NCBI RefSeq assembly: GCF_003334335.1
Contig: NZ_QOWQ01000048.1
DNA length: 30,915 bases
Direction: 5' to 3' (one strand)
Source of the DNA: Escherichia coli
GTDB taxonomy: Bacteria > Pseudomonadota > Gammaproteobacteria > Enterobacterales > Enterobacteriaceae
Numbering within the stretch: position 1 is the stretch's first letter; each line of letters begins with the position of its first letter. The translations under genes and the position numbers were made by a program. Of the stretch, positions 1-5,025 are shown one piece after another. The notes under the pieces are model-generated. The model had not been told where the DNA came from. It searched no databases and worked only from the letters and a program-made list of their open reading frames with translations.

Positions 1-264
1 ATGAAGTTCCGGCTCGGTGGTTTCGAGGCCATAAAGTCGGCTTACATGGCCCAGGTGCAGTACAGCATGTGGGTGACACGAAAAGATGCCTGGTACTTTG
101 CCAACTATGACCCGCGTATGAAGCGTGAAGGACTGCATTATGTCGTGGTTGAGCGGGATGAAAAGTACATGGCGAGTTTTGACGAGATGGTGCCGGTGTT
201 CATCGAAAAAATGGACGAGGCACTGGCTGAAATTGGTTTTGTATTTGGGGAGCAATGGCGATGA
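1..264 (+). CDS. exo: Lambda-type exonuclease (Red-alpha), C-terminal fragment, 5'-partial at the window edge
   Basis: The 87-aa translation ending ...[11 protein letters not shown] matches the lambda Exo C-terminus as I recall it; the ATG at position 1 is internal to the real gene. Confidence 0.85.
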
Positions 265-443
265 CGCATCCTCACGATAATATCCGGGTAGGCGCAATCA
301 CTTTCGTCTACTCCGTTACAAAGCGAGGCTGGGTATTTCCCGGCCTTTCTGTTATCCGAAATCCACTGAAAGCACAGCGGCTGGCTGAGGAGATAAATAA
401 TAAACGAGGGGCTGTATGCACAAAGCATCTCCTGTTGAGTTAA
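255..443 (+). CDS. Small lambda orf60a-like protein
   Basis: A 62-aa ORF overlapping the exo 3' end, in the position and orientation of lambda orf60a. The true start may be the second ATG at 261. Confidence 0.65.
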
Positions 444-607
444 GAACGAGTATCGAGATGGCACATAGCCTTGCTCAAATTGGAATCAGGTTTGTGCCAA
501 TACCAGTAGAAACAGACGAAGAATTTCATACGTTAGCCACATCCCTTTCACAAAAACTGGAAATGATGGTGGCGAAAGCAGAAGCAGATGAGAGAGACCA
601 GGTATGA
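416..607 (+). CDS. Small lambda orf63-like protein
   Basis: A 63-aa ORF overlapping the previous ORF by 28 nt, the same arrangement as orf60a/orf63 in lambda. Confidence 0.7.
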   Translation: MHKASPVELRTSIEMAHSLAQIGIRFVPIPVETDEEFHTLATSLSQKLEMMVAKAEADERDQV

Positions 608-687
608 CAACCACTGAATGCATTTTTCTGGCAGCGGGCTTCATATTCTGTGTGCTTATGCTTGCCGACATGGGGCTTGTTCAGTGA
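604..687 (+). CDS. Possible 27-aa hydrophobic micropeptide (MTTTECIFLAAGFIFCVLMLADMGLVQ)
   Basis: Its ATG overlaps the orf63-like TGA stop in an ATGA arrangement (604..607). The sequence is a continuous hydrophobic stretch long enough for one transmembrane helix. Confidence 0.35.
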   Translation: MTTTECIFLAAGFIFCVLMLADMGLVQ

Positions 688-899
688 CACCTCAGCAGGA
701 AAACGCCCTTCGCAGCATTGCCCGTCAGGCTAATTCTGAAATCAAAAAAGCCAGACAGCAGTTTCCGGATAAAAACGTCGATGACATTTGCCGTAGCGTA
801 CTGAAGAAGCACCGCGAAACGGTAACGCTGATGGGATTCACACCGACTCACTTAAGTCTGGCAATCGGTATGTTAAACGGCGTCTTTAAGGAACGGTGA
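618..899 (+). CDS. Hypothetical protein in the orf61 region; start uncertain
   Basis: A 93-aa ORF in a third frame, followed by a hairpin plus T-run. It overlaps the micropeptide ORF, so which of the two is expressed is unresolved. Confidence 0.4.
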   Translation: MHFSGSGLHILCAYACRHGACSVTPQQENALRSIARQANSEIKKARQQFPDKNVDDICRSVLKKHRETVTLMGFTPTHLSLAIGMLNGVFKER

Positions 900-921
900 A
901 CATGAAAAGCAAAATCATCAG

Positions 922-945
922 GGAGCTACAGGCTCCTTTTTTATT
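922..945 (+). terminator. Intrinsic-terminator-like hairpin plus T-tract
   Basis: GGAGC-tacag-GCTCC followed by TTTTTTATT. Confidence 0.45.
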
Positions 946-997
946 ATTCGCATTCACCCTCAAGCGTATTAACCAACAATTCAGGGATTAATGGAAG

Positions 998-1219
998 ATG
1001 GCAGACCTCATTGATTCAGCATCAGAAATTGAAGAATTACAGCGCAACACAGCAATAAAAATGCGCCGCCTGAACCACCAGGCTATATCTGCCACTCATT
1101 GTTGTGAGTGTGGCGATCCGATAGATGAACGAAGACGCCTGGCCGTTCAGGGTTGTCGGACTTGTGCAAGTTGCCAGGAGGATCTGGAACTTATCAGTAA
1201 ACAGAGAGGTTCGAAGTGA
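998..1219 (+). CDS. TraR/DksA-family C4 zinc-finger protein (lambda Orf73-like)
   Basis: A 73-aa protein with CxxC...(17)...CxxC (CCECG...CRTCASC), typical of the TraR/DksA zinc finger. Its stop overlaps the next ORF's GTG (GTGA). Confidence 0.8.
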   Translation: MADLIDSASEIEELQRNTAIKMRRLNHQAISATHCCECGDPIDERRRLAVQGCRTCASCQEDLELISKQRGSK

Positions 1220-1467
1220 GCGTAATTCACTCTCAGGCACTGCGTGAAGCGGCAGAGCAGGCAATGCATGACAACTGGGGATTTGACGCGGACCTTTTCC
1301 ATGAGCTGGTAACACCATCGATTGTGCTGACACTGCTGGATGAACGGGAAAGAAACCAGCAGTACATCAAACGCCGCGACCAGGAGAACGAGGATATTGC
1401 GCTAACGGTGAGGAAACTGCGTGTTGAGCTGGAGACAGCAAAAATCAAAACTCAACGAGCAGCGTGA
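1216..1467 (+). CDS. Ea22-like protein, N-terminal part, ended by an in-frame TGA at 1465
   Basis: GTG start overlapping the upstream stop; the 83-aa product resembles the conserved Ea22 N-terminus (recalled, not searched). The same frame stays open after the TGA for 53 more codons, to a TAG at 1627..1629. Confidence 0.6.
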   Translation: MSVIHSQALREAAEQAMHDNWGFDADLFHELVTPSIVLTLLDERERNQQYIKRRDQENEDIALTVRKLRVELETAKIKTQRAA

Positions 1468-1765
1468 GTAGAAGGTGTTATCTCGGATGGAAGTAAGCGT
1501 ATTGCTGAACTGGAGGCCTGGGTTGAATACACAAGAGCTGCATACGTAAGAGCAAAAGACAAGGGAGATTTGATCAGAGTTATTACCCGACAACCAACGG
1601 GATTTTACGCTTACGTACCATGTAATTAGGAATCCTTGAAGTGGCAGCCTAACTGCGGATACACTGAAATGGCGATTTGGTAACATGTTTCGCACAAGGC
1701 TGTTACTACGCTTAAAGATAATCAGCCATGATTAAACGCTTTGTAAAAAGTAAAAGGAAATTACA

Positions 1766-2380
1766 ATGAAAAAATCAATACTAATTTTAGGGCTTACGTT
1801 AATTGTCTCATCTCAAATACCATCGGCAATGGCAAAAAATGAATCAAGACTTTGGGTTGTTGTTGATCGAACGGAAAGACATACCTGCCCTTCAAGTAAA
1901 TGTGGAGTGGCTGGGAAACTATTTTTCAGGGAAGGCGTAGATTTTCTAGAAAAAAAAGGTGAATGGGTTCGTATAACTGAGCCATATTCAGCCTCATGTG
2001 TGGGAGGGGAAAGCGAATATATTAAAGAAGGTAATAAATCCTGCACAAGAAAAAACGGAATCGTCAATGGCAAGTTTTCAGAATGGGTTAAACTTAGTGA
2101 TCTTAGCAGTGAAAGGCCATCAGATCCTGCTGAAAATGCGAGCGGAGATGATACTTTAATCAAAGGATCTGATGACTACCGTATATACAAAAAAGAGTTT
2201 TCTTCGGCAGCTAGGAAGTTAATAAACGAAGGGGTCTGCACGGAAAGCGACTTTAAGGAAATCGGAGGGTGGATGGCATCAAGCAATAAGGGGAAAAACA
2301 TCTATTTCACATATTGCGGAGGAATGACGTTGTCGAACAGAATATACCTAGACGTTAAAAGTGGAAAGACTTTTAGATAA
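1766..2380 (+). CDS. Hypothetical secreted (periplasmic) protein, 204 aa, AT-rich accessory gene
   Basis: SD AAGGAAA 8 nt upstream of the ATG. N-terminal signal peptide MKKSILILGLTLIVSSQIPSAMA with an AMA-K signal peptidase I site and no lipobox. The mature part has 7 Cys. Codon usage is visibly AT-rich compared with the flanking genes. Confidence 0.75.
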   Translation: MKKSILILGLTLIVSSQIPSAMAKNESRLWVVVDRTERHTCPSSKCGVAGKLFFREGVDFLEKKGEWVRITEPYSASCVGGESEYIKEGNKSCTRKNGIVNGKFSEWVKLSDLSSERPSDPAENASGDDTLIKGSDDYRIYKKEFSSAARKLINEGVCTESDFKEIGGWMASSNKGKNIYFTYCGGMTLSNRIYLDVKSGKTFR

Positions 2381-2451
2381 TATGATATTACCAATGACAG
2401 TATTAATTTAATGCCTCCATAGAATTATCTCTAGGAAGTATGTATAAGAAA

Positions 2452-2488
2452 AGCCCGCACAATGAGCTGCTGCGGGCTTTGTGTTATT
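2452..2488 (+). terminator. Intrinsic terminator downstream of the secreted-protein gene
   Basis: AGCCCGCA-(11-nt loop)-TGCGGGCT followed by TTGTGTTATT. Confidence 0.55.
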
Positions 2489-2673
2489 CGCCATATTTTA
2501 TGAAGCAAATACGACACTATAGATAATTAAGCGTTGCTGGTTGTCGATTCCTCACTCACTCCTGTTGATGGCTCTCTTCTTGTATGTGCCATTGAAGGGT
2601 AATATCGAGTAAAAAGATACCGGAAGTATCCGCGCCGCCATGATTGTCTTTCTCCTAATGCAGGAAAAGCAGA

Positions 2674-3012
2674 ATGGCTAAATCATCAGCAGAGCGCAAA
2701 GTCGATCAGAGAGCCAAGCAAGCATCATCCGGTATGCGTAAGCTGGAGCTTGTACTTGATGCTCAGGAAATTGAAATGCTGGATCGTAACTGAGCCACGC
2801 GCCGCTTCAGGCATGCGCCTTACGAGTTTGGTGAGTACATCGCGTTACTGAGCCGCCAGGATGATGCACGTGTGCGCTGGCGTATAAAATCGATCAGCAG
2901 AAAACGTTGCGGTAAGTGCGGCGAGAGAGTTCCTGTTAATTCATGCCCGTGTAATGGTGACTCACAATGCTGGGTGACCAAAGGCTGGCACGAAACAAAA
3001 TTAATGATATAA
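2674..3012 (+). pseudogene. Cys-rich small-protein ORF interrupted by a single in-frame TGA (2791..2793); possibly an ea8.5-type gene
   Basis: Frame 1 is open from 2644 to 3009 apart from the one TGA. The C-terminal half carries CGKC...CPC...C, a zinc-ribbon-like pattern. SD AGGAAA precedes the ATG at 2674. The ORF track shows no intact ORF of 60 aa or more on either strand here. Confidence 0.45.
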
Positions 3013-3040
3013 ATCTCTGTGACATGTCACGGAGGCGGCA

Positions 3041-3469
3041 ATGAAATTAGACCAGCAATATCTAAAAGATCTACTTATCGCATTCGAAAAAACTCATGGC
3101 CCTGACACGATGCTTAGTGAACTAGAGGATAATGGCTTTAATAGATATGACCAAAATTTTATTTTCCATATGCGATTATTATGCGACTACGAATTAATAG
3201 TCAGGGTTGATGGAAAACCTGGGTTCGGTCATATAATGTCCAACGAGTTAGGGGAAGGTGTTGGATATAGTTGGATCGAAGTACCACTGAGGTTGACAGC
3301 AAGAGGGCATGATTTTATTGCTGACTTGCGTCAAAAGGAGGTCTGGCAAACTATAAAAACAAACTTTAAGGATGAGGGAATTAGTACACTAATAAGTGTT
3401 TCAAAATCACTAGCAAAAGGCTTTGCAAGGAAAAAGATAAAAGATATTACAGGAATAGATATTGAATAA
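3041..3469 (+). CDS. Hypothetical cytoplasmic protein, 142 aa, AT-rich accessory gene
   Basis: Strong SD GGAGG 5 nt upstream. No signal peptide or transmembrane segment. Followed by its own terminator. No catalytic motif that I recognise. Confidence 0.7.
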   Translation: MKLDQQYLKDLLIAFEKTHGPDTMLSELEDNGFNRYDQNFIFHMRLLCDYELIVRVDGKPGFGHIMSNELGEGVGYSWIEVPLRLTARGHDFIADLRQKEVWQTIKTNFKDEGISTLISVSKSLAKGFARKKIKDITGIDIE

Positions 3470-3513
3470 TTCTTAGCATCAGCAACTACTGCCTTTGGTG
3501 GAAATTATATCTG

Positions 3514-3540
3514 AACTCGCTACGGCGAGTTTTGTTTTAT
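3514..3540 (+). terminator. Intrinsic terminator downstream of the 142-aa gene
   Basis: AACTCGC-tacg-GCGAGTT followed by TTGTTTTAT. Confidence 0.6.
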
Positions 3541-3551
3541 GGAGATGATAA

Positions 3552-3719
3552 ATGCACTTCCGAGTCACAGGTGAATGGAATGGAGAACCATTCAACAGAG
3601 TTATCGAAGCAGAGAACATCAATGACTGCTATGACCACTGGATGATATGGGCGCAGATAGCACATGCAGACATAACCAATATTCGAATTGAAGAACTGAA
3701 AGAACACCAAGCCGCCTGA
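3552..3719 (+). CDS. Hypothetical 55-aa protein upstream of xis
   Basis: GGAG 8 nt upstream of the ATG; the ORF ends inside a hairpin plus T-run. Confidence 0.4.
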   Translation: MHFRVTGEWNGEPFNRVIEAENINDCYDHWMIWAQIAHADITNIRIEELKEHQAA

Positions 3720-3732
3720 TGGCGGTTTTTTC
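3709..3732 (+). terminator. Terminator-like hairpin just upstream of xis
   Basis: CCGCC-tgat-GGCGG followed by TTTTTTC. In lambda-type logic this would be read through by antiterminated pL transcripts. Confidence 0.45.
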
Positions 3733-3758
3733 TTGCGTGTAATTGCGGAGACTTTGCG

Positions 3759-3977
3759 ATGTACTTGACACTTCAGGAGTGGAACGCTCGCCAGCGACGC
3801 CCAAGAAGCCTTGAAACAGTTCGTCGATGGGTGCGCGAATGCAGGATATTCCCTCCTCCGGTTAAGGATGGAAGAGAATATCTGTTCCACGAATCAGCGG
3901 TAAAGGTTGACTTAAATCGACCAGTAACAGGTAGCCTTTTGAAGAGGATCAGAAATGGGAAGAAGGCGAAGTCATGA
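3759..3977 (+). CDS. xis: Excisionase
   Basis: The 72-aa product MYLTLQEWNARQRRPRSLETVRRWVRECRIF... matches lambda Xis as I recall it; it overlaps the int start by 23 nt, as in lambda. Confidence 0.95.
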   Translation: MYLTLQEWNARQRRPRSLETVRRWVRECRIFPPPVKDGREYLFHESAVKVDLNRPVTGSLLKRIRNGKKAKS

Positions 3978-5025
3978 GCGCCGGGATTTACCCCCTAACC
4001 TTTATATAAGAAACAATGGATATTACTGCTACAGGGACCCAAGGACGGGTAAAGAGTTTGGATTAGGCCGAGACAGGCGAATCGCAATCACTGAAGCTAT
4101 ACAGGCCAACATTGAGTTATTTTCAGGACACAAACACAAGCCTCTGACAGCGAGAATCAACAGTGATAATTCCGTTACGTTACATTCATGGCTTGATCGC
4201 TACGAAAAAATCCTGGCCAGCAGAGGAATCAAGCAGAAGACACTCATAAATTACATGAGCAAAATTAAAGCAATAAGGAGGGGTCTGCCTGATGCTCCAC
4301 TTGAAGACATCACCACAAAAGAAATTGCGGCAATGCTCAATGGATACATAGACGAGGGAAAGGCGGCATCAGCCAAGTTAATCAGATCAACACTGAGCGA
4401 TGCATTCCGAGAGGCTATGGCTGAAGGCCATATAACAACAAACCCGGTCGCAGCCACTCGCGCTGCAAAATCAGAGGTAAGGAGATCAAGACTTACGGCT
4501 GACGAATACCTGAAAATTTATCAAGCAGCAGAATCATCACCATGTTGGCTTAGACTTGCAATGGAACTGGCTGTTGTTACCGGGCAGCGAGTTGGTGATT
4601 TATGCGAAATGAAGTGGTCTGATATCGTAGATGGATATCTTTATGTCGAGCAAAGCAAAACAGGCGTAAAAATTGCCATCCCAACAACATTGCATGTTGA
4701 TGCTCTCGGGATATCAATGAAGGAAACACTTGATAAATGCAAAAAGATTCTTGGCGGAGAAACCATAATTGCATCTACTCGTCGTGAACCGCTTTCATCC
4801 GGCACAGTATCAAGGTATTTTATGCGCGCACGAAAAGCATCAGGTCTCTCCTTCGAAGGGGATCCGCCAACCTTTCACGAGTTGCGCAGTTTGTCTGCAA
4901 GACTCTATGAGAAGCAGATAAGCGATAAATTTGCTCAACATCTTCTCGGGCATAAGTCGGACACCATGGCATCACAGTATCGTGATGACAGAGGCAGGGA
5001 GTGGGACAAAATTGAAATCAAATAA
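3955..5025 (+). CDS. int: Tyrosine integrase, lambda Int type
   Basis: The 356-aa product MGRRRSHERRDLPPNLYIRNNGYYCYRDPRTGKEF... is essentially lambda Int by recollection; its 3' end faces the att site. Confidence 0.97.
   Translation: MGRRRSHERRDLPPNLYIRNNGYYCYRDPRTGKEFGLGRDRRIAITEAIQANIELFSGHKHKPLTARINSDNSVTLHSWLDRYEKILASRGIKQKTLINYMSKIKAIRRGLPDAPLEDITTKEIAAMLNGYIDEGKAASAKLIRSTLSDAFREAMAEGHITTNPVAATRAAKSEVRRSRLTADEYLKIYQAAESSPCWLRLAMELAVVTGQRVGDLCEMKWSDIVDGYLYVEQSKTGVKIAIPTTLHVDALGISMKETLDKCKKILGGETIIASTRREPLSSGTVSRYFMRARKASGLSFEGDPPTFHELRSLSARLYEKQISDKFAQHLLGHKSDTMASQYRDDRGREWDKIEIK

Follow-up and report, generated by a model that had tools for sequence, protein, structure and literature searches.

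The stretch of Escherichia coli DNA analysed here (30,915 nucleotides, hereafter the window) contains at 2674..3012 of the plus strand a gene that we consider, with a probability of about 0.93, to be a nonsense pseudogene, in which the TGT codon for Cys40 of a conserved phage protein has become TGA, and which lies in a decayed lambda-type prophage. The window is a 100% match to the chromosome of E. coli ATCC 8739 (NZ_CP022959.1), window base 1 being base 3143112 of that record. The pseudogene status of the locus was already known, as RefSeq describes CJZ69_RS23645 as 'hypothetical protein, internal stop', flags it as pseudo, and makes a pseudogene call with an internal stop in ATCC 8739, EC21Z-014 and SZQ1; our analysis confirms this existing annotation. 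Three marks of a pseudogene coincide at 2674..3012: a stop that is premature by comparison with intact orthologues, a relaxed constraint, and surroundings in decay. The parts of the gene are the following:

2662..2665, plus strand: AGGA resembling a Shine-Dalgarno sequence, 8 nt upstream of the ATG at 2674 (read from the sequence, with a presumed function)
2674..3012, plus strand: PHROG 536-family pseudogene, similar to phiV10 gp55 and epsilon15 gp49 (phrog_536 match, identity to phiV10 gene 55, RefSeq)
2674..2793, plus strand: residual reading frame of 39 aa (ORF list)
2791..2793, plus strand: opal nonsense codon TGA at codon 40, in place of TGT for Cys40 (alignment with Chlobot, fEC.1 and phiV10)
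2908..2991, plus strand: untranslated Cys/His cluster C79, C82, C91, C93, C99 and H106, a putative metal-binding tail (conservation)

The pseudogene comprises 113 codons, including the internal TGA and the terminal TAA. In the nucleotide alignment codon 40 is TGA in the window and TGT in phage Chlobot, E. coli fEC.1 and phiV10, and the lesion is a single T-to-A change, a transversion, at position 2793. All homologues begin at the position equivalent to the ATG at 2674. An earlier interpretation made from the letters alone (the sequence-only reading) had started the gene at the ATG at 2734 and counted 19 codons, the TGA and 72 further codons; this ATG exists and the arithmetic is correct, but it is the internal Met21. 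The same reading had described exactly one stop in the frame followed from 2644. The TGA is indeed there, but a second stop, TAA, is found at 2656..2658, and the one-stop stretch extends only over 2659..3009 (117 codons). It had further argued that roughly five stops would be expected by chance and that the stretch must therefore be coding. For 117 codons of the local composition the expectation is about 7.2 stops, and the probability of at most one is about 0.005; however, 140 comparable low-stop stretches exist across the six frames of the 31-kb window, so that the stop count is on its own weak evidence of coding. The stretch 2659..3009 is nevertheless coding sequence by origin, because of its homology with PHROG 536 and with 299 proteins.

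The homology searches were made with a translation in which codon 40 was repaired from TGA to Cys. This protein gave a full-length match to the phrog_536 profile (E = 6.7e-49, residues 1-111 on profile positions 2-114 of 115), and a large protein collection yielded the 299 homologues, of which 120 clusters were listed. In 104 of these 120 the protein has a length of exactly 112 aa, and the homologues listed come from E. coli, Salmonella, Citrobacter, Klebsiella, Raoultella, Edwardsiella and other hosts and are all annotated as 'hypothetical'. The named members of the family are phiV10 gp55 (YP_512310), the gene of which (gene 55) shows about 90% nucleotide identity to the window copy, and epsilon15 gp49. 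Both are collinear with the window gene over all 112 codons and have the same start, the same stop and the same CGKC...CPC...C...H arrangement. The possibility left by the sequence-only reading that the two halves belong to unrelated genes is contradicted by these homologues, which are single 112-aa proteins spanning both halves. Members of PHROG 536 consist of one uninterrupted ORF of about 112 aa, whereas the window copy is broken by the TGA at codon 40.

The conservation of the family gives the position of the stop its significance. Twenty-three of the 112 family columns are invariant and a further 49 nearly so. Cys40, in the motif ERNCATRR, is invariant in the 120 cluster representatives (120/120), as are C79, C82 and C91, and C93, C99 and H106 are found in 119, 118 and 115 of them, respectively. 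The window still codes for these six tail residues, with Cys40 replaced by the stop. Its C-terminal half reads C79-G-K-C82 ... C91-P-C93 ... C99, and the Cys spacing that the sequence-only reading had noticed there is borne out by the translation. The window copy also departs from the PHROG 536 consensus at otherwise conserved positions (P45F, G46R, R47H, I60S and G69W).

The genomic position of the family varies. The phiV10 and epsilon15 members are situated at the end of the Uetakevirus genome, in contrast to the window copy, which is in the exo-xis region of a lambda-type prophage. Upstream of the family gene, ASCH or NinX is found in Uetakevirus-type and other phages, while downstream there is the genome end with a terminator in phiV10 and xis in Pantoea phage AH07. 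In the window the downstream neighbour is a DUF2513 gene; a conserved pair of the two genes, as in a toxin-antitoxin or defence system, was considered and rejected, the neighbours being different in other phages.

Positions 1..5025 of the window are the right end of the prophage remnant and abut ybhC. The gene order in this part is TraR/DksA-like, truncated ea22-like, IS1, a 204-aa secreted 'moron', UmuD-like fragment, pseudogene, DUF2513, orf55 homologue, xis and int. The neighbouring features are listed below; the window coordinates of IS1 and of the ea22-like gene are the RefSeq locus coordinates minus 401.

506..757, plus strand: truncated, frameshifted ea22-like gene adjoining IS1 (RefSeq)
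956..1653, minus strand: IS1 in the exo-xis region (RefSeq)
1766..2380, plus strand: 204-aa protein (phrog_8310, no known function), the N-terminus of which resembles a signal peptide
2534..2599, plus strand: truncated UmuD-like 'DNA repair protein' fragment, the upstream neighbour, a pseudogene (RefSeq CJZ69_RS23995, 'incomplete')
3041..3469, plus strand: DUF2513 protein (phrog_585), the downstream neighbour, intact
3552..3719, plus strand: orf55 homologue, 54/55 identical to lambda orf55
3759..3977, plus strand: xis
3955..5025, plus strand: int

The rest of the element (NZ_CP022959.1, 3139246..3143111) consists of gene fragments and a second IS1 by ybhB, followed by cIII-kil-gam-bet-exo-orf60a-orf63. 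Altogether the remnant has about 9 kb and two IS1 copies, and in this element no head, tail, lysis, replication or immunity genes were found. It is inserted between bio/ybhB and ybhC, a site which we take to be the lambda attB. The truncation of the ea22-like gene predates the IS1 insertion, because the prophage of EC21Z-014 has the same truncation without IS1. The gene for the 204-aa protein is followed at 2447..2480 by a G+C-rich hairpin and a T-run resembling an intrinsic terminator, and the two together have the look of a self-contained 'moron' that entered the exo-xis region by insertion; the protein had neither a Pfam-independent annotation nor a PADLOC match. The DUF2513 gene co-occurs with the allele group of the window's sublineage in about 142 E. 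coli genomes.

The TGA allele was followed in 5426 complete E. coli genomes with a 30-mer able to seed only across the TGA. It was present in 63 of them, including three assemblies of ATCC 8739 (NC_010468, CP022959 and CP033020), and the strains came from humans, poultry, cattle, an opossum and old NCTC stocks. The corresponding 30-mer with TGT, of the sister allele, was found in 80 genomes of the same set, TGA thus making up about 44% of the sublineage. In metagenome contigs, searched with a degenerate exact pattern, 19 copies were detected, 10 with TGA and nine with TGT. The GenBank phage collection contained no copy of the TGA allele. At codon 43 every TGA copy has CGC and every TGT copy the synonymous CGT, and this complete linkage indicates a single origin of the TGA mutation. 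On the other hand, the flanking variants are reshuffled over at least seven TGA haplotypes, which points to recombination and to some age of the allele. The sequence-only reading had offered a freshly inactivated gene as one option, and the gene is inactivated; given the 63 complete genomes, the 10 metagenome contigs and the at least seven haplotypes, it is not freshly so. Such a high frequency of TGA in the sublineage may be a hint that the allele is selected for, and is not simply drifting or hitch-hiking.

The polymorphic sites of the sublineage comprise 15 nonsynonymous and five synonymous ones (site totals of 258.7 and 77.3, respectively), giving a pN/pS of about 0.9 in this small sample, close to that of neutral variation, and for the fixed differences to phiV10 the ratio is about 0.32. 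Conserved residues are altered on TGA haplotypes: the window copy has R47H, and R66C, G80R and C99Y occur on others. Haplotypes with TGT also carry Y50C, G80R and C99Y at nearly invariant residues, and the uninterrupted alleles of the sublineage share P45F, G46R, I60S and G69W. Since radical substitutions occur on TGT haplotypes too, the relaxed constraint belongs to the whole sublineage and not to the stop alone. In this lambdoid sublineage constraint seems relaxed, or else the function has diverged.

A sequencing or assembly error with TGT as the true codon was an option of the sequence-only reading, and the TGA does differ by a single base from the codon of the intact homologues. The probability of this is vanishingly small, the identical TGA being present in three independent ATCC 8739 assemblies, in about 60 other complete genomes and in the 10 metagenome contigs. 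Its further option of translational readthrough, in the form of UGA40 decoded as selenocysteine or by programmed readthrough as Trp or Cys to give a full-length functional protein, appears to us very improbable, although the TGA falls exactly on an invariant Cys codon, which is the classic Cys/Sec pattern, and although the allele is widespread. In the minimum-free-energy fold a 4-nt apical loop lies at nt 23-26 after the UGA, close to its place at nt 22-25 in E. coli fdhF. However, the folds of the 50-100 nt downstream were in three alleles no better than those of shuffled sequences (z = +0.84, +0.90, -0.13 and -0.63), and as the fdhF positive control was not significant either, the z-score alone cannot exclude a SECIS and the case against one is founded on loop sequence and architecture. 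The SECIS of fdhF requires a SelB-binding loop (G23, U24) and a bulged U. The loop in the window is AUGC, so that position 23 is A and not the G contacted by SelB, and a bulged U is absent. The EC21Z-type TGA allele prefers a different hairpin, whose loop lies at nt 14-19. The TGT alleles have the same bases here, so that none of this co-evolved with the stop, and an Rfam search of 2400..3200 with E up to 10 gave only chance matches, none of them near the TGA. The stop is followed by G, and leakier contexts for UGA exist. The substitutions at conserved residues downstream of the stop and the near-neutral polymorphism described above also argue against recoding: of the features of a selenoprotein gene, a UGA at the Cys position of the homologues is present, and a SECIS and, in this small sample, downstream purifying selection are not. 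Low-level readthrough of UGA is common in E. coli and background leakiness at codon 40 may yield some of it; nothing points to programmed recoding. That UGA40 is decoded usefully, as Sec or by near-cognate Trp or Cys, making the TGA allele a maintained low-dose or conditional regulator of the exo-xis region, has in our opinion an equally slight chance.

Two other readings concern the identity of the gene rather than the decoding of its stop. The locus might hold two functional small genes, one for the 39-aa peptide (2674..2793) and one for a 46-aa Cys-rich peptide starting at GTG 2872. Both ORFs are present, the depositors of phage Chlobot annotate the latter as 'transcriptional regulator', and the 40-residue phrog_34005 matches the N-terminal part. 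It is nonetheless highly unlikely, considering that a single ORF of 112 aa is the rule in the clusters listed, that the full 112-aa frame is open in Chlobot, so that the split annotation there is probably a gene-caller artefact, that no Shine-Dalgarno sequence is evident before GTG 2872, and that all seven polymorphic sites in codons 1-39 are nonsynonymous (7/7), with no sign of constraint on a peptide. The sequence-only reading had suggested, from a size of about 92 codons, a gene of the lambda ea8.5 type. A disrupted ea8.5 gene is extremely unlikely, even though the map slot is shared: the order in lambda is ea22 - ea8.5 - orf55 - xis - int, and in the window it is ea22 fragment ... pseudogene - DUF2513 - orf55 - xis - int. 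Ea8.5 and the family protein are also both small and non-essential exo-xis products, helical in their N-terminal part and containing Cys in their C-terminal part. On the other side, BLASTP of the repaired protein against lambda Ea8.5 (NP_040611) gave E = 25 over a 3-residue alignment, the best family match is PHROG 536, and the agreement in length had arisen from the internal ATG at 2734. Ea8.5 has a hybrid homeodomain/zinc-finger fold (PDB 2M7A; PMC8614690), and no fold similarity to the family was found for the structures 2M7A and 2M7B of an Ea8.5 homologue. The pseudogene is a replacement at the map position of ea8.5 and not its orthologue, and the tentative Ea8.5 assignment, right in map position only, is corrected in this sense. 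A family member is found directly upstream of xis/int in Pantoea phage AH07 as well.

Two annotations of related sequences are worth recording here. The family phrog_34005 (40 positions, 'unknown function') is simply the first 40 residues of PHROG 536 and matches residues 1-40 of the repaired protein; truncated or split copies of PHROG 536 genes have apparently been placed in a cluster of their own. In phage Chlobot (PP925838.1, 2934..3412 of the locus) the depositors placed an ORF named 'UmuD-like protein' over the intact 112-aa gene in another frame, and of that gene they labelled just the last 46 codons, as 'transcriptional regulator'; this is probably a gene-calling error.

The AlphaFold2 model of the intact protein, built from an alignment of 110 sequences, is of moderate quality (mean pLDDT 75) and has three helices (residues 5-18, 30-42 and 52-67) ahead of a Cys-rich tail that is mostly irregular. 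From this model we would give even odds to the intact protein being a small early exo-xis regulator, composed of a dimeric ribbon-helix-helix-like DNA-binding module and a Cys/His tail binding a metal, probably Zn. Metal binding by the tail is putative. The nearest known DNA binders would be ribbon-helix-helix proteins of the CopG/Arc/MetJ type, including RepB/CopB-like regulators of plasmid copy number; these have a beta-strand followed by two helices and dimerise through an antiparallel beta-ribbon. The stop at codon 40 would fall at the end of helix 1, with the loss of helix 2 of the putative module and of the entire Cys/His tail, and the 39-aa remnant would hold just the N-terminal helix, a putative beta-strand and helix 1. 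Because helix 2 and the tail are removed, the truncated product is almost certainly non-functional and would be expected not to fold.

Searches against other collections did not add to this picture. Pfam gave no significant family for the repaired protein or for the 110 aligned members, only sub-threshold noise of the Fer4_20 type from the Cys cluster, and NCBIfam and PADLOC gave no match for the repaired protein or three neighbours. In the PDB the sequence profile found only chance matches (E above 2) and Foldseek found no match. The label 'transcriptional regulator' of PHROG 536 is an annotation only; our literature search found no functional study of the family, and to our knowledge no member has been functionally characterised. 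The paper on phage vB_EcoP_ZX5 studied the repressor, the anti-repressor and the integrase and does not cover the PHROG 536-type gene. The 'possible transcription factor' gp05 of phi24B (PMC8614690) is a different protein, with winged-helix-turn-helix and coiled-coil parts. PHROG 536 represents a conserved protein, helical at its N-terminal end and with a tail of six Cys/His residues. Its gene often adjoins xis/int and can replace ea8.5 in lambdoid exo-xis regions, which makes it a candidate for the roles in modulating transcription that have been proposed for this region.

Returning to the nonsense pseudogene, its history is very probably as follows. The gene was a 112-aa accessory gene in the exo-xis region of a lambda-type prophage, and one T-to-A transversion at 2793, which arose once, makes translation end after 39 residues. 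The mutation is tolerated because the exo-xis genes are dispensable for phage growth; in PMC6213356 they are described as not needed for phage propagation. Lambdoid prophages of E. coli have since carried the TGA allele further and exchanged it by recombination, and in ATCC 8739 it is located within the cryptic remnant of about 9 kb.

The typical nonsense pseudogenes of cryptic prophages in E. coli likewise have one internal stop, are placed in a deleted remnant disrupted by IS elements and carry the pseudo flag of PGAP. In comparison with them the TGA allele is unusually widespread, and nothing else material sets it apart. This wide distribution is due to its being carried by mobile prophages, including an apparently near-complete lambdoid element, and recombining prophages have in this way brought one nonsense allele into about 1% of sequenced E. 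coli. A widespread stop at a Cys position, as found here, need not imply recoding. The element in question, a circular record of 43,337 bp from strain SZQ1 (NZ_CP174001.1, 'plasmid' pOHT76-1_1), carries the TGA allele and is essentially a lambdoid phage genome with tail, lysis, Q and replication genes. It also contains pseudogenes of ren, ydaT and others, and a partial host diguanylate-cyclase gene adjoins its int; the record could stem from aberrant excision of a prophage or be an artefact of assembly.
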